Made by a program: the position numbers and the translations under genes. A stretch of 46,025 nucleotides of DNA, taken from contig JAZNHI010000155.1 of the NCBI GenBank assembly GCA_045576895.1, forward strand, positions 1 to 46,025. Reading direction: 5' to 3'. Position 1 is the stretch's first letter; each line of letters starts with the position of its first letter. This DNA is from Clostridia bacterium (GTDB taxonomy: Bacteria; Bacillota; Clostridia; Christensenellales; CAG-138). A model generated the notes under the pieces. It worked only from the letters and a program-made list of their open reading frames with translations, had not been told where the DNA came from and did not search any database. This document shows, one piece after another, positions 7,579-43,305 of this stretch.

Positions 7579-7614
7579 ATGAATACCTCTATGTTCTAAT
7601 TTTATATGATTTTA

Positions 7615-8121
7615 TCATATCGAAGGGTGTTTCGTCAATCCGTTTAGCCAAGGATGCCGTTTTCCGATCTCCGACATCACGTTTCTGCAATGCTCTTCCC
7701 ACAAAGGATCTCCGATGATCAGACGCACCCGTTCCGCGATCAGATACACAAATTCAAGGTTCGAAGGCGGATCCTTGCGGTTTTTGCCCCGCAGTCCGAG
7801 ATACGAGTACAGCACATCCGGATCCGCACGTTCCCATGCGCGTTCGATCGCATAATGCATCGTTCGCATGATCATCGGCTTCGTCGTGTTCATGCAGTGT
7901 TCGATGTACGGATACAGCTCCTTCTTCGTGGTCGAACGCAGCTTCGGCGGTCTTGTGCGGATGAATCGCACCGCAAGGAAGATGTACCGATATCCGAGCA
8001 GCTTTGCCGGAACGCAAAGCGCGCGCATGACCGCATTGATCGTTGCGTTCAGCAGAACGTCCGGATCGCTGTAAACCGAGCGCAGTTCATTCTCCATCCG
8101 TTCCATCTCTTCCATTGTCAT
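7615..8121 (-). CDS. stand-alone Spo0A C-terminal (DNA-binding) domain protein with no receiver domain
   Basis: 168 aa. VPAKLLGYRYIFLAV...TKPMIMRTMHYAIERAW...PPSNLEFVYLIAERVRL aligns by eye with the B. subtilis Spo0A C-domain (VPAHIKGYLYLREAI...ASRVERAIRHAIEVAW...KPTNSEFIAMVADKLRL). The ATG at 8119-8121 overlaps the upstream stop (ATGA). Confidence 0.7.
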   Translation of the reverse strand: MTMEEMERMENELRSVYSDPDVLLNATINAVMRALCVPAKLLGYRYIFLAVRFIRTRPPKLRSTTKKELYPYIEHCMNTTKPMIMRTMHYAIERAWERADPDVLYSYLGLRGKNRKDPPSNLEFVYLIAERVRLIIGDPLWEEHCRNVMSEIGKRHPWLNGLTKHPSI

Positions 8122-8831
8122 AACAGAGTCCCCCTTTTTTGATCGAGTCCGATGCAGTCAGCCGCGCGAAACAGAAAGGCCGCGTTGGACGGTGCGGCGC
8201 GTTCCGATTGGACCGTTTCTCCGAACAGCTTGTCAAGCGTATCCGGATCCGCAAGCAGCCAGGCGGTATCGATGGCGTGACGCACCGCGTGCTCCGCAGC
8301 AGATGTGCTTACACACATTTCAGCCGCAAGGATTTCGTACAGATCGTTTACCGAACGAACATTTGTCGCCTGCTTCTGTGTCAGGATCAGGCGTATCGCT
8401 TCCTTCATATAATCGAAACCGCTCAGCGAAACGGGAAATCCGGTCTGCTGCAAAAAGCGTGAGATCCTGCATTCCGTATCGTTTCTGCGCGTTTGTCCGC
8501 CGGGAAACGATGCGATCATATCCAGAATCCGTTTCGGGTCCTCAGTACCTGAAAAACAGTATGTAACCTCCTCCGGGATCAGAAACGGCTTGTCCGATTC
8601 CCGCAGCAGCAGATAAAACTGATTCGGCCAGAGCACGGGACACCTCCGGATCCGCGGATGCGACGCATACGGATCATCCGAGATCAGTGCGTCGAACGGT
8701 TCCCGGAACAGCCGTTCCAGCACCTGCGGGATCGTTCTTTCCGTGCAGAGACGGATCCGCTCCGTGCCGATCGACGCTTCACGAAATCGTTGCGCCGTTT
8801 CGCTTTCATTTGTCAGTAGCATCACTTTCAT
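8118..8831 (-). CDS. Spo0A-like protein at the syntenic spo0A position: divergent (pseudo-)receiver plus Spo0A_C domain
   Basis: I trimmed the track ORF 8118..8969 to the ATG at 8829-8831, which is preceded by GAAGGAGGAAG. The C-terminal half carries SAAEHAVRHAIDTAW and PSNAAFLF. The N-terminal half is REC-like in beta/alpha pattern but starts MKVMLLTNESE. The gene lies directly downstream of spoIVB. Confidence 0.65.
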   Translation of the reverse strand: MKVMLLTNESETAQRFREASIGTERIRLCTERTIPQVLERLFREPFDALISDDPYASHPRIRRCPVLWPNQFYLLLRESDKPFLIPEEVTYCFSGTEDPKRILDMIASFPGGQTRRNDTECRISRFLQQTGFPVSLSGFDYMKEAIRLILTQKQATNVRSVNDLYEILAAEMCVSTSAAEHAVRHAIDTAWLLADPDTLDKLFGETVQSERAAPSNAAFLFRAADCIGLDQKRGTLL

Positions 8832-8920
8832 CGGTCTTCTTCCTCCTTCTTCATTCTGGCGGAGAAACCGACGAAAATCTACAGATAAAATGTGTCCAAA
8901 CGCGGTAATTCTGTAAACAA

Positions 8921-10117
8921 TTATCTTGCGGGCAGCAGTTCCCGTGCCATGCGCTCCGCATAAAGACAATAGCCGCGCGTCGGCTGGCTGATGAAAACAT
9001 GCGTGACGATACCGATCAGTCTCCCGTCCTGGATCAGCGGACTGCCGCTCATGCCCTGCACGATGCCTCCGGTCTTTTGAAGCAGTAAGGGATCCGTGAT
9101 CTCGATCATCACGCCCTGCGTTTCGGGTGACGACTGCACGTCGGTGCGGATGATTTCGACCGTATATGCCGAAACGGTTCCGTCTACATCCGAAAGAATA
9201 TATGCGGCGCCCCTGTGCGCCGCGCCGGCGGGAGCGATCTCCGCCGTCTTTCCCTCCGCATTCCGAAAGCTGTCAAGAATGCCGCCGATCCCGAATACGG
9301 TGTTGCGTTCGACGGTTGCGATTGCATCGCTTTCGCGTACAGAAAACACGCCGACCAGCTCGCCCGCAGCATTCCCGGTCCCCTTCCGGATCTCGCGGAT
9401 CGTCGCCGACGTCAGATATCCGGTTGCCGGAGAGATCAGCTTCCCTGTATCGACATCCGTCACGCCATGTCCCAAAGCAGCATACGCCCCGCTCCCGCGA
9501 TCACAGAAGGACAGCGTTCCGATCCCGGACGTGCTGTCGCGCACCCACGCGCCGATCCGCTTCTCTCCGCTCGAATCCGTCTCCGGCGTCAATATCGTTT
9601 TGAACGCATTGCCGTCGCGCAGGCAGGACAGTTCGCATGCGCCTGCCGTCTCATCACACAGTTTCACAAACGAATCGGTATCCTGAACCGGCATCCCGTC
9701 AATTGCGCAGATCATGTCGCCTTCGCGAAGCCCTGCCGAGACAGCCGGACATACGGATCCATGCGCCGTATCGATTTTTTCAAATCCGACGATCTGCACG
9801 CCGGACGTTTTCAGAATGACGCCAACCGCTTTTCCTCCGAGCGTTACCGTTCTTGCATCGGAGAATACCGCGACGGTTTTGAGCGGCAGAACGCCGAACA
9901 GAGAGATCCGGATGGGTTCGCCCTCCAGCCGCTCGTCTCCGCTTCCCCGCACGAAACGCGCGTCGGTCCGATGCTGTTCAAGCGCAGGCGCAGACAGCGA
10001 CTCGCCCGCATCGACGACGTCCGGAAGATGCAGCACACGGTAGACCTGCGGAATGCAGTACCATCCGACAAGCAGAAAAGCAAAGCAAGCGCTGATTGCG
10101 CGAACGATTCGTTTCAT
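8921..10117 (-). CDS. spoIVB: SpoIVB signalling serine peptidase (S55)
   Basis: GIVQGMSGSPLIQDGRLIGIVTHVF plus a PDZ-like segment. I trimmed the start to the ATG at 10115-10117 (MKRIVRAIS..., AAGGAG RBS). The recN-spoIVB-spo0A synteny supports the call. Confidence 0.88.
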   Translation of the reverse strand: MKRIVRAISACFAFLLVGWYCIPQVYRVLHLPDVVDAGESLSAPALEQHRTDARFVRGSGDERLEGEPIRISLFGVLPLKTVAVFSDARTVTLGGKAVGVILKTSGVQIVGFEKIDTAHGSVCPAVSAGLREGDMICAIDGMPVQDTDSFVKLCDETAGACELSCLRDGNAFKTILTPETDSSGEKRIGAWVRDSTSGIGTLSFCDRGSGAYAALGHGVTDVDTGKLISPATGYLTSATIREIRKGTGNAAGELVGVFSVRESDAIATVERNTVFGIGGILDSFRNAEGKTAEIAPAGAAHRGAAYILSDVDGTVSAYTVEIIRTDVQSSPETQGVMIEITDPLLLQKTGGIVQGMSGSPLIQDGRLIGIVTHVFISQPTRGYCLYAERMARELLPAR

Positions 10118-10137
10118 TTGATTCAACTCCTTTTCGG

Positions 10138-10167
10138 TATCGTGTGACAAACGGTCCGAAAACATAC
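10138..10167 (-). promoter_or_regulatory. forespore (sigma-G/F-like) promoter candidate for spoIVB
   Basis: On the minus strand: GTATG (10163-10167), 18 nt, CACGATA (10138-10144), compared with sigma-G GHATR-18-CATXHTA. The match is only partial. Confidence 0.25.
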
Positions 10168-10207: not shown

Positions 10208-11881
10208 TTATGCCTTTGCGGATATCAGCAGGCGCTTTGCATGCTCCATTGCCGCCGCATCGTCTTCGCCGCTGCCCATAATCCGCGCGATCTCCTTCGG
10301 TCGTTCCGCCTCGGTGAGTCTGCGCGTTATGCTGTGCGTCTTCTCTGCGTCGGAATACTTGTAAGCCACATACTGCGTATCGGCATATGCCGCGATCTGG
10401 GGCAGATGCGTGACGCAAAGAACCTGATGCTTTCGTCCGAGCGCACGCATTTTGACTGCAACGGCATTCGCGACCATGCCGGAAATGCCGGTATCGATTT
10501 CATCGAAAATCAGCGTCTCGATGCGATCCGCGTCCGAAAGCGCCGCTTTCATTGCAAGCATGATGCGGGACATTTCGCCGCCGCTTGCAACCTTGACGAG
10601 CGGTTTCACCGGCTCGCCGCGGTTTGCGGAAAGCAGGAACGCCGCTTCGTCAATGCCCGTTTCCGAAAGCGCTTCCTTCGGGATCTCCGTAAACGCCGTT
10701 TCCATGACCGCATGCGGCATGCCCATCTCCGCAAGCTCCGAAACTGTTTCTTTCATCAGCTTCTGCGCGGCGGACTTCCTTCGATCCGAAAGCTGCCTTG
10801 CAAGCTTTCCGAAGGAATCGACAGCGGTCCTATACGCTTTCTCAAGCGCATCCGCGCGGTTTTCACCGTCGTTCAGGATCTGATACTCGTTCCCGATCTT
10901 TTCGCGATAAGCGAGGACCTCAGCGATCGTAGCGCCGTATTTGCGCTTCAGATTCTGCAGCGCGGCAAGGCGGCTTTCCGTCTGTTCGAGAAGCGCAGGA
11001 TCGTAGCGGAATGCGTCGCGGCTGTCCCGGAGCTCATATGCGACGTCCTCGATGGAATAATACGCGTCGTCCGTTCGTTCGGACAGCCTGCGATAGTCTT
11101 CATCGTATGCGCCGATCCGGTTCAGCGCGTCACGCGCGTCGGTCAGCGTCGAAAGCGCGCCGCCTTCGGCAAACAGCGCATCGTATGCGGCGTTCAGTCC
11201 CTCGACGATCGCTTCTGCATTGCGCATACGCAGCCGATCCGCCTCAAGCTGTTCCTCTTCGCCGTCGACGGGAGAAACGGAATCGATCTCCCTGATCTGA
11301 TACTGCAGCGCATCGATGCGCCGCTCGCGTTCCCGAAGTCCGCTTTTCAGAATGTCCAGATCACGTTTTGCCGTCAGCGCCGCCTGCCTTGCATCCTCTG
11401 TTCTTGATTTCAATCCGTCCGAATCGCTCTTTGCATATGCGTCAATCAACGCAAGATGCGTCTCCGGATTCAGAAGCGACTGATGCGCATGCTGACCGTG
11501 CAGGTCGACAAGAAGGTCTCCGATTGTTTTTAGCTCCGCCGTGCCGACCAGCGTGCCGTTGACGCGACATACGTTTCTGCCGCTTAATGAAAGCTCGCGA
11601 TACAAAACGAGCTCGTCGCCGTCGTCGAGTTGTTGCTGCCGGAGATAGCCTTGTACCGGAGAATCCGGCGAAAGCAGAAATGTCGCTTCGACGGACGCCT
11701 TATCCGCCCCCGTACGAATGCTCTCACGGCTTGCGCGCTCACCGAGTACAAAGCTGACCGACTCGATCAGGATGGACTTGCCCGCGCCTGTTTCGCCGGT
11801 CAATACAGAAAAGCCCGCATCGAAAGCAATGTCGGACTTATCTATCAAAGCGATATTCGTAACCTGTAAACGTGTGAGCAC
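10208..11881 (-). CDS. recN: DNA repair protein RecN
   Basis: Walker A VLTGETGAGKS and the C-terminal ASGGEMSRIMLA signature. I trimmed the start to the GTG at 11879-11881, after a GGAGGG RBS (VLTRLQVTNIALID...), which removes the overlap with argR. Confidence 0.9.
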   Translation of the reverse strand: MLTRLQVTNIALIDKSDIAFDAGFSVLTGETGAGKSILIESVSFVLGERASRESIRTGADKASVEATFLLSPDSPVQGYLRQQQLDDGDELVLYRELSLSGRNVCRVNGTLVGTAELKTIGDLLVDLHGQHAHQSLLNPETHLALIDAYAKSDSDGLKSRTEDARQAALTAKRDLDILKSGLRERERRIDALQYQIREIDSVSPVDGEEEQLEADRLRMRNAEAIVEGLNAAYDALFAEGGALSTLTDARDALNRIGAYDEDYRRLSERTDDAYYSIEDVAYELRDSRDAFRYDPALLEQTESRLAALQNLKRKYGATIAEVLAYREKIGNEYQILNDGENRADALEKAYRTAVDSFGKLARQLSDRRKSAAQKLMKETVSELAEMGMPHAVMETAFTEIPKEALSETGIDEAAFLLSANRGEPVKPLVKVASGGEMSRIMLAMKAALSDADRIETLIFDEIDTGISGMVANAVAVKMRALGRKHQVLCVTHLPQIAAYADTQYVAYKYSDAEKTHSITRRLTEAERPKEIARIMGSGEDDAAAMEHAKRLLISAKA

Positions 11882-11892
11882 TCTGCCCTCCG

Positions 11893-12342
11893 TTATTTCA
11901 TCATTTTCTGGAATTTCTTGATGATGTCGGAAACGTTCTTTCCTTCGCGTACGGCGACGAACACCGTATTGTCGCCCGCGATGGATCCCGCGATCTCCGG
12001 CCACTTCATGGAATCGATCGCTTCCGCGGCAACGGCGGCGCTGCCCGCCATCGTTTTCACGACGATCAGGTTCCCTGCGGAAGTGATCGAAACGACGCAG
12101 TTGCCGAACAGGCGGATAAAGCGTTCCTGCAGATCGGATTCCGCCTTTTCCACGGTTGCATATTTATAACGACCTTCGCCGGTCAGGACTTTAATCAGAC
12201 GAAGCTCCTTGATGTCACGCGAAACGGTCGCCTGGGTCACATTGAACCCCTGCGCGCTCAAAAGCGATGCAAGCTCCTCCTGCGTTTCGATGTTTTCGGC
12301 AGCAATCAGCTTTAAGATCATTGCATGTCTTTTCGGTTTCAT
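11893..12342 (-). CDS. argR: arginine repressor
   Basis: 149 aa. KRHAMILKLI...ETQEEL..L...GFNVTQATVSRDIKEL and GTIAGDNT-like SIAGDNTVFV. Confidence 0.88.
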   Translation of the reverse strand: MKPKRHAMILKLIAAENIETQEELASLLSAQGFNVTQATVSRDIKELRLIKVLTGEGRYKYATVEKAESDLQERFIRLFGNCVVSITSAGNLIVVKTMAGSAAVAAEAIDSMKWPEIAGSIAGDNTVFVAVREGKNVSDIIKKFQKMMK

Positions 12343-35109: not shown

Positions 35110-35186
35110 TGGTCGAGGCGACTGGATTTGAACCAGCGGCCTTTTGGTCCCGAACCAAACGCGCTACCAAACTGCGCTACGCCTCG
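35110..35186 (-). tRNA. tRNA-Pro (anticodon CGG), CCA encoded
   Basis: Hand-folded 77-nt cloverleaf: CGAGGCG-TA-GCGC-AGTTTGGTA-GCGC-G-TTTGG-TTCGGGA-CCAAA-AGGCC-GCTGG-TTCAAAT-CCAGT-CGCCTCG-A-CCA. Confidence 0.9.
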
Positions 35187-35190
35187 ACAT

Positions 35191-35266
35191 TGGAGCCAAA
35201 GAGGGGACTCGGACCCCTGACCTACGCATTACGAGTGCGTCGCTCTACCGACTGAGCTACTTTGGC
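35191..35266 (-). tRNA. tRNA-Thr (anticodon CGU), CCA encoded
   Basis: Hand-folded 76-nt cloverleaf: GCCAAAG-TA-GCTC-AGTCGGTA-GAGC-G-ACGCA-CTCGTAA-TGCGT-AGGTC-AGGGG-TCCGAGT-CCCCT-CTTTGGC-T-CCA. The T-loop reads TCC rather than TTC. Confidence 0.85.
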
Positions 35267-38601: not shown

Positions 38602-39375
38602 TTGCAGAAGGTGGAGATCACAAGCATCGACACTTCACGGCTGCCGCGGCTGAAGCCGGATGAAATGCGAAAGCTTTTGGAGCGCGCCAAAATGGGCGAC
38701 GAGGAAGCGCGCGAGAAATTCATCTACTCCAATCTGCGGCTCGTTCTTTCCGTTGTACAGCGATTTTCCGGACGCGGTGAGCTTGCGGACGATCTGTTTC
38801 AGGTCGGCTGCGTCGGACTGATCAAGTCGGTCGACGGGTTTGACCTTTCGCAGGACGTTCGTTTTTCGACCTACGCGGTGCCGATGATCGCCGGAGAGAT
38901 CCGACGGCATCTGCGCGATTACAGTGCCGTACGCGTGCCGCGTTCGATGCGTGATACCGCATACCGTGCCATGCAGGCAAAGCTTTCTCTGACGGAAAAG
39001 CTTTCGCGTGAGCCGACCGTCGGCGAAATTGCAAAGGAGCTCGGCGTTGGCGAGCCGGACGTGGTCTTTGCGCTCGATGCGATTTCCGATCCCGTCTCCC
39101 TTTATGATCCGGTGTTCAAGACGGATGACGACACGCTCTGCGTACTCGATCAGAACTGCGATCCGAAGGACAGCGAGGCAAAACGCGTCGATTCCATCAC
39201 GCTGAAGGAAGGGATCTCGCGTCTCAGCGAGCGCGATCAGAAGATCCTGAACCTTCGGTACTTTGCGTGCAAAACACAGGTTGAGGTCTCCAAGGAGATC
39301 GGCATCTCACAGGCGCAGGTCTCGAGGCTTGAAAAGAGTGCGTTGAAGCAGCTTGAGAAGTATATCGGTTCATGA
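38602..39375 (+). CDS. sigG: sporulation sigma factor sigma-G
   Basis: TTG start after [31 protein letters not shown]..., [40 protein letters not shown] and [11 protein letters not shown] track B. subtilis SigG closely (KVEICGVDTSKLPVLKNEEMRKL...). Confidence 0.85.
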
Positions 39376-40083
39376 CTGCATCCGAACGATCTCTCGCTTC
39401 AGCCGTTTCATGATCCGTTTCTCGAGACGGCTGATGTAGCTCTGCGAGATCCCCATCGCGTCCGCAACCTGCTTCTGCGTCTGCGCTTCGCCGTTCTTCA
39501 GTCCGAACCGCAGATCGATGATCTCGCGCTCGCGGTCCGTAAGCTTTGAAAGCGCTTTGTTCAGCAGTTCGAGCTCGACCTCGTCCTCCATATCGCGGCT
39601 CACGACGTCCGGATCGGTGCCGAGCACATCCGAAAGCAGCAGCTCGTTCCCGTCCCAGTCGACGTTCAGCGGTTCATCGAAGCTGACCTCAAGCTTCAAC
39701 CGCGTCGTGCGGCGCAGATGCATCAGGATCTCGTTTTCGATGCAGCGGGAAGCATAGGTCGCAAGCTTGATCTTCTTTTCCGATTTGAACGTCTCGACCG
39801 CTTTGATCAGTCCGATGGTTCCGATGCTGATCAGATCCTCCGTCTGCACGCCGGTGTTCTCGAACTTTTTTGCAAGATAGACGACCAGGCGAAGATTGTG
39901 TACAATCAGCTTATCCTTTGCCGCCTTGTCGGTCGGCGCAAGTTCGATGCACCGCGCTTCCTCTTCCGGATCGAGCGGAGGAGGAAGTCCCTCGTTTGCA
40001 TGAACGTACCATAAGGTATTGTGTCTGCCAATGCGCAGCCGCACGAGCAGGCGTGCCCAAATACGAAGTAGCCACGCTGTCAT
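39370..40083 (-). CDS. sigE: pro-sigma-E sporulation sigma factor
   Basis: Pro-sequence plus [92 protein letters not shown] and [13 protein letters not shown]. It lies downstream of spoIIGA. Confidence 0.88.
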
Positions 40084-40858
40084 CCGTTATCCTCCAATCA
40101 TACGGTAAAAGACTTTCCGGCAGGATCGCCTGCGCCGCGCCGATCGGTTCCGGCGCTCTCGCGCAAATACAGTCGACCGTGACGCCGCCGTATTGCGGGA
40201 GCACGGCCGATACCGGCCGTTCCCCGTACAGAACGCCGCCGCAGGACACTTTTGCAAACGGAATCGGACGCAGCGGCCGATCGACCTCTCTGTCGATCAG
40301 AATGACCGGCAGACCCGAAACAGGGTCCTTCAACAGATTTCCGCTGTCGATCAGCGCGTCCAGCCGATAGGTATGCTCCGCAAGCCGAACCGTCAGTTCC
40401 GTATGCAGCGTCCTTCTTCTGCGGACCGAAAGCAGCTTTCGGATCAATCGCGGCAGACACGCAGCGCAGACCGCCGAAAGAAGCGCTGCGCGCAGCGGAA
40501 CCGTCCCGACCATCGTTCCGTCCGCATAGACCGTTCCGCCGAACTGCAGGGTCAGAAGCATCGCTGCCCCGCCCGTCAATGCCGCCGCAAGCAGAATAAA
40601 CGGGATCGGTTTCAGAAATCCTCCGGAGCGGCGGAACAGCGGCAGCGAAACCAGCAGAAAGCACGGCAGTTTGCAGTAAGGCTCCCGGAGCGTCGGGATC
40701 AGGAACAGGGATGCGAACGCATAGCACGCACCGATCAGCGAAGCGAGCACCGTCGGACCGATCCGGATACGAACGCCCATCCATGCTGCGGCAAGCAGAT
40801 ACACGCAGCAGTTCATCAAAGTATTGTCCAGAAGAAACGGCTCTATGGCGATCTTCAT
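39911..40858 (-). CDS. spoIIGA: sigma-E processing peptidase SpoIIGA
   Basis: 315 aa. Five N-terminal TM helices ([26 protein letters not shown]...) and an aspartic-protease motif [11 protein letters not shown]. The last 57 codons overlap sigE out of frame. Confidence 0.8.
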
Positions 40859-43062
40859 GCGACCGAGATCACCATAACCGTCATGTCGTCCGATCCGCCT
40901 CTTGCTTTCGCGATCGTCAGAAGCTGCTCCCCCGTCCTTTCACCGGTCTGTCCGACGGTACGGATCACCTGTTCCGCATCCTCCGGGAACATGTCGTGAA
41001 CGCCGTCGGAGCACAGCACGATCCGGTCGTTCTTCTTCAGCTGCATGCGGATCACGCTCGGTTTTGCTTCGACAAGGATCCCGCACGGCAGCGCCTCTCC
41101 GGCGATCGTGCTGACCTGTCCGTCCCGCACAAGATAGCTCGGCGGCGCACCGTATTTCAGCAGCTCCGCTTCGCCCGTCTTCAGGTCGATCGAAACGGCG
41201 TCAAGCGTGGCATACATCTCGGTCTCGTTCTGCGCCAAAAGCATACGGTTCACATTTTCATATACAAGCTCCTTCTGAACGCCCGCATGGCACAACCGGA
41301 ACAGCAATCGGATCGCCGCTTCGCTTTCGCGGCGCGCATTCCTGCCGCTCCCCATTCCGTCGGACAGGGCAAAGCATACGCGTCCGCCCGGAATTCTGCA
41401 CTCGCCCGTCGCATCGCCGCTGACCGTATCCGATCCTGCCGTTCTTGCGACCTGCGCCGCCGCGTGCAGCTCCGCGTCCTGTTCAAAACCGAACGATACG
41501 CGCCGCTCACTCTGCGCAACGCGGATGCAGCGAAGCGGATAACCGCACGCCTGTTCAATCTCCCTTCGAACGGCGGAATGCTTTATTTTGAGCGGACGAA
41601 CCAAAACCGCCGTGATCATATCCGAACCGTTTGTTTCATAGATTTCCAGCGACTCAACAGTCAATCCTGCACGGATCAATCGCTCGCGGATCCTTCTTTC
41701 GGTCTGATCCGTTCGCCGCGAGCGGCTTCGCATCTGTCTTGCATAGGTGCAAAGCGCAGCGCCGGCACCCGAGAACTGCCTCTCGACAAATCCGGACTGC
41801 GTTTGCGCCTGCCTGCCGATCGCGTTTCGGTTCACCGCCTGCTGATACGACAGCAGAACGGAACCGCACAGATCGCCGAAGTGTTTGCATGCCTCATCGA
41901 TCGGATCGGTCGGATAAACGCGATCCCCTTCCCCCGCCGCTATTGCAAGCGACAGCAGCGTTTCCTGCATTGCATCGGCGTCCTTCCAGCATCTGCGGCG
42001 ATTCTCACAGTTGCGGCAGATCGCAAGCGCACCCTGTACCGTCCATCGCACAATGCTGTCATCCTCCGTCGGTTCAACATGAAACATTGCGGAGAATCCG
42101 CCGAGCAGTTTTCCCATTCGCTCGATCTCACAGGACGCGCGCCGTTCGGTCCGTAAAATCGCGTCCTTGACCATCCGGTCGGCATTCAGCTCCGCATCCG
42201 TGTATTGCCGCAGTCCGTCAAGCCATGCTTTCGGCATGATCAGAAACAGCAGCATTCCGCTCAGCAGATTCGGCGCGCCCATAGATAAAGCCTCCGCCGT
42301 CCGATAGGTCTGAAACAGGAGTCCCGAAAGGAAGAACGAACAGATGATAAACAGCTTTCCTCTTTCCCGCACAACGGCGGCTGTCAACGCGCCGATCGAA
42401 ACACAGCCGATCAGAACAGGGTCTGCGCCGGTATAGACCGTAAGCATGACCGACCAGAGGACGCCTGCCGCCGCGCCGAAGATGCCCCTTGCCCAAACTG
42501 CAATCCCGGTCAGAACCAGCATCAGTGTGACAGCAAGCGACCAACCGCGAAATGCCGCGTCGGCACACGCAAGCAGCAGCATGCCGATCCCCAGCGAAAA
42601 CACGATCTGCTCGGAATCAATTACCATGCGCGGGTGCGTCAGCGTTTTGACCGAAAGGCAGATTCGTCGGAAACAGATCGCCGACAGCACCGAAATTGCG
42701 ATCGAGATCACGCCGTACAGGAGCTCTTCGGTTCCGTAGATCGCCGCGACCGGCAGCGTAATCAGGCTGCAGCCGAGATAGATCAAAAGCCGCGTGATCG
42801 GTTTGCAGCGCTTCCGGGCAAGCAGGATCAGCCGCGTGACGCCCCAGTAAAGCAGAACCGCCGAGACACCCTGCCAGCATGGCTGCGGTTGCGAAAACGC
42901 GCCGAGGATGATTCCGCCGACGATCGCCGCCGGATCGAATCCCGCAAGCTGACTTCCGAGTAACAGTCCGAGTGACAGCGGCATGTGCAGTCCGTGGATC
43001 CGCACGCGGGACAGCAGCAGCGCACACAGGAACCCGCCGATCACCACGGCTGTTCCGATCAT
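40855..43062 (-). CDS. spoIIE: stage II sporulation protein E (PP2C phosphatase with polytopic N-terminal domain)
   Basis: About 10 TM helices, then a PP2C core (FALSDGMGSGRNARRESEAA...LCSDGVHD...GGSDDMTVMVISV). I trimmed the start to the ATG at 43060-43062 after GGAAGGAAG. The track start at 43107 has no RBS and abuts a hairpin. Confidence 0.82.
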   Translation of the reverse strand: MIGTAVVIGGFLCALLLSRVRIHGLHMPLSLGLLLGSQLAGFDPAAIVGGIILGAFSQPQPCWQGVSAVLLYWGVTRLILLARKRCKPITRLLIYLGCSLITLPVAAIYGTEELLYGVISIAISVLSAICFRRICLSVKTLTHPRMVIDSEQIVFSLGIGMLLLACADAAFRGWSLAVTLMLVLTGIAVWARGIFGAAAGVLWSVMLTVYTGADPVLIGCVSIGALTAAVVRERGKLFIICSFFLSGLLFQTYRTAEALSMGAPNLLSGMLLFLIMPKAWLDGLRQYTDAELNADRMVKDAILRTERRASCEIERMGKLLGGFSAMFHVEPTEDDSIVRWTVQGALAICRNCENRRRCWKDADAMQETLLSLAIAAGEGDRVYPTDPIDEACKHFGDLCGSVLLSYQQAVNRNAIGRQAQTQSGFVERQFSGAGAALCTYARQMRSRSRRTDQTERRIRERLIRAGLTVESLEIYETNGSDMITAVLVRPLKIKHSAVRREIEQACGYPLRCIRVAQSERRVSFGFEQDAELHAAAQVARTAGSDTVSGDATGECRIPGGRVCFALSDGMGSGRNARRESEAAIRLLFRLCHAGVQKELVYENVNRMLLAQNETEMYATLDAVSIDLKTGEAELLKYGAPPSYLVRDGQVSTIAGEALPCGILVEAKPSVIRMQLKKNDRIVLCSDGVHDMFPEDAEQVIRTVGQTGERTGEQLLTIAKARGGSDDMTVMVISVA

Positions 43063-43108
43063 AGGGCTTCCTTCCTGTTCAACTGTCTTCAAATTCCGCA
43101 TCTGCATG

Positions 43109-43134
43109 CCGGTATTGTACTAAAACAATACCGG
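43109..43134. promoter_or_regulatory. perfect 10-bp inverted repeat in the spoIIE/dapL divergent region
   Basis: CCGGTATTGT-actaaa-ACAATACCGG. The arms extend imperfectly to about 15 bp (CATGC.CGG.../...CCGGTGCATG). Confidence 0.4.
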
Positions 43135-43216
43135 TGCATGTCCGGCAATCCCTGTCGGCAAAGCTTTGCTTTTTCCCGCGCCGTTTCCCCTCGGTTCCGC
43201 AAGGTATCGCAGGTTC

Positions 43217-43247
43217 CTGTCAGAATCAACGCGTTCTGTCAGAATCA
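43217..43247. repeat. tandem 12-bp direct repeat abutting the dapL -35
   Basis: CTGTCAGAATCA occurs at 43217-43228 and again at 43236-43247, a 19-bp period. Each copy contains the small dyad CTG-T-CAG. Confidence 0.6.
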
Positions 43248-43249
43248 TC

Positions 43250-43278
43250 TTGCCCGATCGTGTCGGATATGCTATAAT
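43250..43278 (+). promoter_or_regulatory. sigma-A promoter for dapL
   Basis: TTGCCC (43250-43255), 17-nt spacer, TATAAT (43273-43278), 27 nt upstream of the ATG. Confidence 0.5.
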
Positions 43279-43305
43279 AACATGACTTTCTTAAGGAGGA
43301 ATCCC

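Follow-up and report, generated by a model that had tools for sequence, protein, structure and literature searches.

Endospore formation is regarded as having a universal trigger, phosphorylated Spo0A (Spo0A~P). What becomes of this trigger when the gene in the spo0A position codes for a protein whose phosphorylation pocket has been largely dismantled? The question is raised by a stretch of 46,025 nucleotides from a Clostridia bacterium of the Christensenellales lineage CAG-138 (assembly GCA_045576895.1, contig JAZNHI010000155.1, positions 1 to 46,025), here called the window. In the window the spo0A slot holds two overlapping genes, here called X and Y. X is a Spo0A-derived regulator and both the positional and the phylogenetic ortholog of spo0A; Y is a receiver-less Spo0A_C protein with a helix at its N-terminus and a helical tail at its C-terminus. 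An earlier reading of the window, made from its letters and open reading frames (ORFs) and referred to here as the sequence-only reading, had described the two as a pseudo-receiver gene coupled to a receiver-less paralog, and this description held under profile, structure, synteny and phylogeny tests. As for their function, slightly better than even chances are given here to the reading that X and Y would together form a two-subunit Spo0A that is independent of the phosphorelay. The descriptive part of the finding is much more secure than this functional model.

Both genes are on the minus strand. X (8118..8831, 237 amino acids) runs from an ATG at 8831 to a TGA at 8118, and the ribosome-binding site AAGGAGGA is found upstream of its start at 8841-8848; X orthologs all start with M[KR][IV][ML]LL, downstream of a GGAGG site. 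Y (7615..8121, 168 amino acids) runs from an ATG at 8121 to a stop at 7615. The stop of X and the start of Y share the four letters ATGA (8118..8121), an arrangement of translational coupling, and a GGGGG run similar to a Shine-Dalgarno sequence lies within the 3' end of X, ahead of the Y start. Directly upstream of X is spoIVB (8921..10165, minus strand), which serves as the syntenic anchor and matches TIGR02860 with 314.5 bits (cutoff 305) and PF05580 with 229 bits. NCBIfam and Pfam searches give the gene order dxs-tlyA-nadK-argR-recN-spoIVB-X, and X occupies the usual place of spo0A, directly downstream of spoIVB. The sequence-only reading had given the same minus-strand order and the same ATGA overlap with a 168-codon ORF, and its coordinates, strand and quoted peptides were all correct.

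X and Y both carry the DNA-binding (effector) domain of Spo0A. The Pfam model PF08769 (Spo0A_C) covers residues 123-226 of X with 73 bits (8154..8465, minus strand) and residues 28-131 of Y with 74 bits (7729..8040, minus strand), the latter being the sole Pfam match of Y. Both domains can be aligned over their full length with 1LQ1, the effector structure of B. subtilis Spo0A, in the case of Y over residues 24-134. The Spo0A DNA-binding signature that had been recognised by eye in the C-terminal half of X is borne out by this match and this alignment. The NCBIfam equivalog model for Spo0A, TIGR02875, has a cutoff of 200 bits; X reaches 66.9 and Y 73.2 bits, in both cases over no more than the C-terminal part of the model. 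Paenibacillus Spo0A, by comparison, reaches 416 bits, the receiver-bearing protein A of the sister lineages described below 142-146, and a natural fusion of X and Y 143. Judged as a Spo0A in the sense of TIGR02875, then, the receiver and the score are missing, and the effector domain, the synteny and (in X) the recognition helix are present.

The two effector domains differ in the residues that matter for reading DNA. In the B. subtilis Spo0A numbering, derived from the 1LQ1 alignment, X retains E213, R217, H218, W224, F236, V240, A257 and D258. It has H at R214, as do the Spo0A proteins of Paenibacillus and Sporosarcina, where the motif E-H-A-x-R-H-A-I is identical, and within the X family the residues E180, H181, R184, A186, I187 and W191 are invariant. 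The recognition-helix signature S-x-x-E-[RH]-A-[IVM]-R-H-A-I-[ED]-x-A-W is present in X, in a helix of the canonical type (SAAEHAVRHAIDTAW), and absent from Y, where the helix is derived (KPMIMRTMHYAIERAW). In Y, position 213 is M, 217 is H and 218 is Y, such that of E213, R214 and R217 just R214 stays; F236 and V240 are lost as well. From Spo0A genetics and structure, we take the positions of the 213/214/217 type to be base contacts and F236/V240 to be the contact with sigma-A (the activation region). As read from these residues, X can probably bind a 0A-like box, and Y probably reads another sequence, or depends on X.

Around its effector domain Y has an N-terminal helix of 27 amino acids and a C-terminal helical tail of about 37 amino acids (GDP..EE.Y...WLN). 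The sequence-only reading was right that Spo0A_C is the only domain of Y; the tail of about 45 residues that it had called unique is shorter than that and is shared with the 'B' paralogs of the sister lineages, and the N-terminal helix had not been part of its description. The Y family comprises 46 clusters of about 160 amino acids each, all from the clade that has the X-Y pair. A tblastn search of the 46-kilobase (kb) window found no third copy of Spo0A_C. It is worth noting that X and Y both match two PHROG families of unknown function, phrog_37855 (over the C-terminal 120 positions of a 278-position profile) and phrog_24603, and Spo0A_C-like proteins are therefore also found in phage genomes.

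The N-terminal half of X (residues 1-115; 8487..8831, minus strand) cannot be recognised as a receiver by sequence models. PF00072 (Response_reg) does not match X in a Pfam search even at an E-value of up to 1, and a phmmer search with this domain against 1.84 billion representative proteins returned 10 matches, all of them members of the X family. This is also the outcome of the profile check that the sequence-only reading had proposed, with PF08769 found in both proteins and PF00072 absent from X. Structure prediction gives a different picture. An AlphaFold2 (AF2) model of X from a 29-sequence alignment has a mean predicted local distance difference test score (pLDDT) of 86 and a predicted template-modelling score (pTM) of 0.73. 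Its N-terminal domain, with a pLDDT of about 90, has the topology b1-a1-b2-a2-b3-a3-b4-(no a4)-b5-a5, and the helical effector domain comes after it. In a Foldseek search of the PDB, the top matches of the X model are the Spo0A effector structures 1fc3 and 1lq1 (template-modelling scores of 0.8-0.9, root-mean-square deviation 1.5-2.5 Å), and the next are the full-length regulators NarL, RcsB, PorX and HP1043 and the single receivers 3nhm and 7w9h. When 14 N-terminal domains of X were compared with nine Spo0A-type receivers by hhalign, the two profiles aligned over 107 columns with 96% probability and an E-value of 2.8e-9. Taken together, the alignment and the predicted fold indicate that the N-terminal half of X descends from a receiver and folds like one but does not have its chemistry, and that sequence models are blind to it.

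The chemistry of a receiver depends on a quintet of residues (D-D-D-T-K), which was mapped onto X by alignment through intermediate sequences. The canonical pair D10/D11 corresponds to T7-N8-E9 in the window X, where one acidic residue is left; the register of this pair is uncertain by one position. The acceptor D56 corresponds to D52, T84 to L76, and K106-P107 to G95-T96. Six residues of the beta3-alpha3 loop, downstream of the acceptor, are deleted, and helix alpha4 is gone. Of the whole quintet, only D52 and the acidic loop residue E9 are left. Among 69 members of the X family, position 9 is D in 58 and E in 4; position 52 is D in 56, E in 10 and T in 3; the Thr position is L in 32 and T or S in just 8; the Lys position is K in 21, R in 13 and something else in 35; and the Pro after the Lys is kept in none. 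Three other residues, E39, R43 and D47, are invariant in all 69. X has thus two properties of a pseudo-receiver, namely a CheY-like fold homologous to receivers and the loss of residues needed for phosphorylation chemistry (Thr to Leu, Lys to Gly, Pro to Thr): the fold is kept, the domain is under purifying selection, and the phospho-acceptor machinery is largely dismantled. The hand alignment in the sequence-only reading was essentially right, given two refinements. It had placed the retained acceptor Asp in FDALISDD, and this residue is D52. It had seen no acidic DD pair, and the pair is indeed absent, but one acid of the beta1-alpha1 loop stays (E9 in the window X, D in most of the family). 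It had also seen no beta5 Lys, which is correct for the window X (G95) and its subclade, but K or R is still found there in some of the family, in the numbers given above. An intact acidic pocket together with Thr and Lys, named there as the observation that would overturn its interpretation, was not found in X: Thr and Lys-Pro are gone, and the acidic pocket is incomplete.

The X-Y pair is not particular to one contig. In a scan that took one genome per GTDB species and used patterns such as EHA[MIV]R[HQ]AI[DEG], the order recN-spoIVB-X-Y-deoB-PNP was found in 18 species-level metagenome-assembled genomes (MAGs), mostly from rumen and labelled as Clostridia, Clostridiales, Bacillota or Christensenellales bacterium. 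A further locus from a metagenome assembly (L065), 97% identical to the window, has the same order and the same split into 237 and 168 amino acids. A chance origin of the arrangement is excluded, because the same two genes stand together in 18 species-level genomes and in this close relative. Identity to the window is 74-97% for the flanking genes, 47-94% for Y, 48-76% for the C-terminal domain of X and 32-70% for its N-terminal domain. The ratio of nonsynonymous to synonymous substitutions (dN/dS) is 0.16-0.41 for the N-terminal domain of X, 0.14-0.46 for its C-terminal domain and 0.07 for Y (the last being Y against its closest relative). Both X and Y are under purifying selection in all modules, and Y is the most conserved of the three.

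In 15 of the 18 species the stop of X overlaps or abuts the start of Y. In the remaining three (L004, L009 and L017), which belong to three separate subclades, X and Y are a single ORF of 392-397 amino acids, and these fused genes retain an internal ribosome-binding site and ATG. In the protein database the fusions form nine clusters, one of which (P0049) is present on 13 contigs from three source collections; because of this, it is very unlikely that the fusions are assembly errors. X and Y are made together from one message via overlapping codons, and in three subclades as one polypeptide. A run CAAAAAAGGGGGAC is located at 8127-8140 of the window, just upstream of the X/Y overlap, and the -1 frame continues from there into Y. 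A programmed -1 frameshift at this run was considered and is unlikely: the run does not fit the X XXY YYZ register of canonical slippery sites, and among the split loci the A-run is found in no other than L065.

Where such a pair comes from can be seen in the sister lineages, in which the order is spoIVB-A-B-deoB. Here, A is a protein of 263 amino acids that PF00072 recognises with 27-42 bits; it keeps D56 and the Lys-Pro pair, has one loop acid only, and has Ala in place of Thr. B has 265-282 amino acids and consists of a degenerate receiver-like N-terminal domain without a Pfam match, followed by Spo0A_C. As an example, at L020:9890-11478 (and also in L023-L031 and L050) A and B form a tandem with a 4-nucleotide overlap, and the N-terminal domain of B still has an F-Y-K-P-L motif. 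The A-B tandem is presumed to be the ancestral state of the X-Y pair. An intermediate architecture exists in a MAG labelled uncultured Christensenella sp. (L021:9587-10750), with spoIVB followed by A' (256 amino acids), Y' (129 amino acids) and deoB. This A' has no PF00072 match; it has Asn in place of the acceptor Asp and Met in place of the Lys.

In a neighbour-joining tree of 56 effector domains with 100 bootstraps, Y, B and Y' form one clade (98 of 100), X forms another (87) and A a third (98), and the side with X and A is sister to the side with Y and B. The Spo0A proteins of Bacilli, stand-alone Spo0A_C proteins of Lachnospiraceae and three single-copy genes (L049, L052 and L060) fall outside both. 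X is orthologous to the receiver-bearing A, and Y is orthologous to B; with its slot after spoIVB and its recognition helix of the canonical type, X is the direct descendant of spo0A. From the tree groupings and the A-B gene pairs of the sister lineages, the history is read as follows: spo0A was duplicated in tandem, the receiver of the first copy decayed step by step, that of the second copy was lost, and at the end the two genes were occasionally fused. In the line that leads to Y, the duplicate first degraded its receiver and later lost it, and its recognition helix changed.

Each of the three single-copy genes (L049:1143-1889, L052:2662-3396 and L060:168-920) is found directly upstream of deoB in another gut MAG, one of these MAGs being Candidatus Aphodomonas merdavium. 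They have Ser at the acceptor position and Cys in place of the second loop Asp, and they keep Thr and Lys-Pro; the protein of L060, the one that was scanned, matches PF00072 with 46 bits. As judged from the alignment, these are true aspartate-less Spo0A proteins. Under the strong form of the proposal given below, endospore formation without any phosphotransfer to Spo0A, the A-B pairs, the Asn-acceptor gene of L021 and these Ser-acceptor genes would mark stages of that loss, either intermediate or parallel ones.

How might a pair of this kind work? In B. subtilis, Spo0A shows phosphorylation-independent activity when its receiver is removed or mutated, and tandem 0A boxes are bound by dimers of Spo0A~P. 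If X and Y make a two-subunit Spo0A, they would act as one unit with two unlike Spo0A_C heads for reading DNA, and on tandem 0A boxes this unit would stand in for the Spo0A~P homodimer, whose formation is driven by phosphorylation. Early sporulation genes, for example the spoIIE-spoIIGA-sigE cluster of the window, would then be set by the amount of X-Y, with no phosphorelay involved. Alternatively, control might be exerted by a partner or ligand of the conserved surface of the pseudo-receiver, where E39 and R43 are invariant. A stronger form of the proposal, that these organisms form endospores without any phosphotransfer to Spo0A, with an obligate X-Y heterodimer or fusion and with the decision taken through transcription of the operon or through a ligand or partner of the pseudo-receiver, is held more tentatively and at clearly less than even chances. 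Of the functional options raised in the sequence-only reading, the heteromer has gained support from the coupling and the repeated fusion; independence from the phosphorelay is something that we infer.

The region upstream of X offers candidate control elements. An 89-nucleotide region is conserved across 19 loci, and within it CCG, G and A columns and a -10-like element CA(G/C)AAT are invariant or nearly so. In the window, the conserved part (8853..8915, minus strand) contains the promoter-like element CAGAAT, GTAGATTTT, TTGGACA and TTACCG. An element that resembles a reversed 0A box is exact in L006 and L011 (TTCGACA) and reads TTGGACA in the window. Sigma-H promoters drive spo0A elsewhere, and CA(G/C)AAT recalls them. 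The region may be a putative sigma-H-like promoter with an auto-regulatory box, an interpretation from the conserved letters.

Similar features are found upstream of spoIIE. Two blocks in the region 43108-43290 are conserved in the relatives L068-L070, in which SpoIIE is just 66% identical. The distal block of about 44 nucleotides, TATTATAGCATATCCGACA...ATCGGGCAAGATGATTCTGACA, holds TCCGACA, one mismatch from a reversed 0A box, and the proximal block, GCCGGACA..CACCGGTAT, lies ahead of a TACAAT -10 element. In the window, the element GATTCTGACAG is directly repeated, 19 nucleotides apart. The sequence ACCGGTA adjoins a CGACA/GGACA element upstream of spoIIE, and does so upstream of X in 10 of 19 orthologs. 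An operator common to the X and spoIIE promoters was considered and dropped as post hoc: ACCGGTA is missing from the window's own X promoter, and the distance to the -10 element is not the same.

The window also contains a considerable set of sporulation genes. Those for SpoIVB, sigma-E and sigma-G score above the curated NCBIfam cutoffs, and spoIIE (750 amino acids), spoIIGA and spoIIIAA, AB, AD, AE and AG are intact, more divergent and recognisable. The genes spoIIE, spoIIGA and sigE lie head to tail on the minus strand (38602-43107), with the stop of spoIIE overlapping the start of spoIIGA, and sigG on the plus strand converges on sigE, their 3' ends overlapping by 6 nucleotides. The usual arrangement is a co-directional spoIIGA-sigE-sigG, from which the window differs. 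Cultured members of the Christensenellaceae have been reported or predicted to be spore formers (PMC12325933, PMC11085954, PMC12536801), and one tool predicted most Christensenellales MAGs to be non-sporulating (PMC12536801). Because the sporulation genes of the window are intact and cultured Christensenellaceae are reported or predicted spore formers, the retained gene set argues against X and Y being leftovers of an abandoned pathway, as far as gene content can tell.

Several observations speak against a phosphorelay-independent Spo0A made of X and Y. The pocket is not empty: E9 and D52 are present in the window X, and across the family over 80% of the members retain D9, and over 80% D52. 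Because these two remain, non-canonical phosphorylation or metal binding by X may occur through E9/D52. In an AF2 model of a natural fusion (P0004), the domains are confident, the pTM is 0.47, the linker at residues 233-239 has a pLDDT below 50, and the placement of Y is of low confidence; a fixed X-Y interface is without structural support in this model, which neither supports nor refutes it. The canonical 0A box TGTCGAA shows no enrichment: in the window it was found 6 times against 10.2 expected, and none of these is in a promoter region, so classical 0A boxes find no support there. Several sporulation genes of the window score below the NCBIfam equivalog cutoffs. The search covered the 46-kb window, and a canonical spo0A, sporulation kinases, Spo0F and Spo0B may be present elsewhere in the genome.

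One rival explanation takes up the remaining acids. It says that X is still controlled by phosphorylation, with a minimal pocket of E/D9 and D52 served by an orphan kinase, and that Y is an accessory modulator. In its favour, 62 of the 69 proteins in the family have an acid at position 9, 56 have the acceptor D52 and 34 have K or R at the Lys position, and the sister-lineage ortholog A is recognised by PF00072 and keeps D56 and Lys-Pro. However, the window X has no Thr or Ser, no Lys-Pro and no second acid, it is missing the six loop residues and alpha4, and the acceptor has changed to E or T in 13 otherwise conserved members. No receiver model or receiver sequence matches its N-terminal domain. 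On balance this explanation is unlikely.

Another explanation that is given only a small share of the probability makes Y an antagonist: it would be a competitor of X for DNA sites, or would sequester X or RNA polymerase, and so provide a built-in brake on sporulation. The lack of F236 and V240 equivalents and of two of the three base-contacting positions in Y fits with such a role, and stand-alone Spo0A_C proteins do occur in unrelated contexts in Lachnospiraceae. Against this, a strict 1:1 coupling and repeated fusion to X suit a subunit better than a competitor, the altered recognition helix of Y argues against competition for the same box, and Y is the most conserved of the modules.

It is quite unlikely that a canonical spo0A elsewhere in the genome does the work and that X and Y are accessory paralogs regulating something other than the initiation of sporulation. 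Within the 46-kb window, which is what the search covered, nothing positive points to this beyond the paralogous Spo0A_C proteins known in other Clostridia, whereas X is in the slot adjacent to spoIVB, and its ortholog in the sister lineages is the one Spo0A-like gene there that bears a receiver. The pattern scan found one locus per X-bearing genome (L004 being found again as L001 and L002), which is a weak argument, as a Spo0A of the ERAIRHAIE type would be missed by it. Finally, the idea that a lineage which has given up sporulation keeps X and Y just as decaying remains of spo0A would agree with the lost catalytic residues of the receiver, the sporulation genes under equivalog cutoffs and the tool that predicted most Christensenellales MAGs to be non-sporulating (PMC12536801), but is very improbable in view of two intact ORFs in 18 species and many metagenome contigs, a dN/dS well below 1 in all three modules, the invariant E39, R43 and D47, and intact ORFs for spoIVB, spoIIE, spoIIGA, sigE, sigG and the spoIIIA genes.

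A two-subunit Spo0A of X and Y can be compared with several known systems. Compared with Spo0A itself (TIGR02875; structures 1LQ1 and 1FC3, receiver 1QMP), X is alike in its slot after spoIVB, its PF08769 effector, its type of recognition helix and in keeping the equivalents of F236, V240, A257 and D258. It differs in that no model recognises a receiver, in that Thr, Lys-Pro, one acid, part of the beta3-alpha3 loop and alpha4 are gone, in scoring 67 bits against the 200-bit cutoff, and in being paired or fused with a second Spo0A_C protein. With atypical response regulators such as HP1043/HsrA (2HQR), ChxR and RitR, X shares a CheY-like fold, a degenerate pocket and a DNA-binding output. We know of no description of an atypical regulator that is coupled to a receiver-less paralog from its own output family, and in the literature neither a pseudo-receiver Spo0A nor a coupled or fused Spo0A_C pair was found described.

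The closest functional analogy would be a regulator pair from Streptomyces, the BldM-WhiI heterodimer, reportedly described by Al-Bassam et al. in 2014 (PLoS Genet). In both cases the proteins are sporulation regulators derived from response regulators, and in Streptomyces a protein with an atypical, pocket-deficient receiver works by forming a heterodimer with a paralog and not by being phosphorylated, the logic that is proposed here for X-Y. The differences are that BldM and WhiI have a helix-turn-helix output of the NarL/FixJ type, that both partners have receivers, and that their genes are not adjacent, coupled or fused; for X and Y the heterodimer would be an inferred one. By analogy, the output of X-Y would be that of Spo0A and the input that of atypical response regulators.

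Two further groups bear comparison with this pair. Aspartate-less receivers are those in which the acceptor Asp is replaced (PMC4395418), and the window X, which keeps D52, is not one of them. A census of such receivers from 2015 lists 7 without the Asp among 391 proteins of the Response_reg~Spo0A_C architecture, in a supplementary table and without discussion (PMC4395418). Degenerate Spo0A receivers have in this sense been counted before, and not studied; because PF00072 does not detect X, proteins like it go uncounted in censuses of this kind. The other group is that of the stand-alone Spo0A_C proteins, to which Y is alike in having PF08769 only and in its name in NCBI records, 'sporulation initiation factor Spo0A C-terminal domain-containing protein'. 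Those of Lachnospiraceae, Eisenbergiella among them, have 160-190 amino acids and match PF08769 with 124 bits (for example L043:9917-10408, and also L036, L041-L048 and L051-L064). Their genes lie between an HTH_3 regulator and a V-type ATPase operon, and they have their own branch in the tree. Y, by contrast, goes back to a tandem duplicate of spo0A, has its fixed place in the spo0A slot and is coupled to X.

Some other features of the window should be mentioned. The longest ORF of spoIVB has 414 amino acids, compared with 398 called in relatives, and the likely true start is an internal ATG at 10117. Similarly, the longest ORF of recN (10208-12004) starts with GTG and has 598 amino acids, compared with 557 in close relatives, and its true start is probably internal as well. 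A sigma-70-like promoter, TTGACG-18-TAAAAT with an upstream TG, is found at 7609-7638, inside the 3' end of Y and just upstream of deoB, and there is no terminator-like hairpin downstream of Y. As predicted from these elements, deoB and PNP may be transcribed from a promoter of their own as well as by read-through from X-Y. The sole Rfam and ARAGORN matches in the window are adjacent genes for tRNA-Pro(CGG) and tRNA-Thr(CGT) on the minus strand (35110-35266).

For the annotation of genomes, the finding has a practical side. Because X and Y score 67 and 73 bits against a cutoff of 200, the NCBIfam model names neither of them Spo0A, and the NCBI records of family members call them just 'Spo0A C-terminal domain-containing protein'. 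Filters that identify sporulating organisms by first asking for spo0A (e.g. PMC11536998) could score genomes with X-Y as spo0A-negative.

For specialists in sporulation and in two-component systems, what is new is an atypical response-regulator version of Spo0A with a probable dedicated second subunit. The series from canonical Spo0A over A and B to X and Y, and on to the X-Y fusion, allows the loss of a receiver from a response regulator to be followed step by step, which is rarely possible. An abundant and uncultured rumen clade keeps its sporulation genes together with a Spo0A ortholog whose pocket is dismantled and a putative second DNA-binding subunit, which suggests that sporulation may be started there without the classical phosphorylation switch. 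If this is true, the clade would be a natural experiment in which a master developmental switch was rewired from phosphorylation to subunit assembly.

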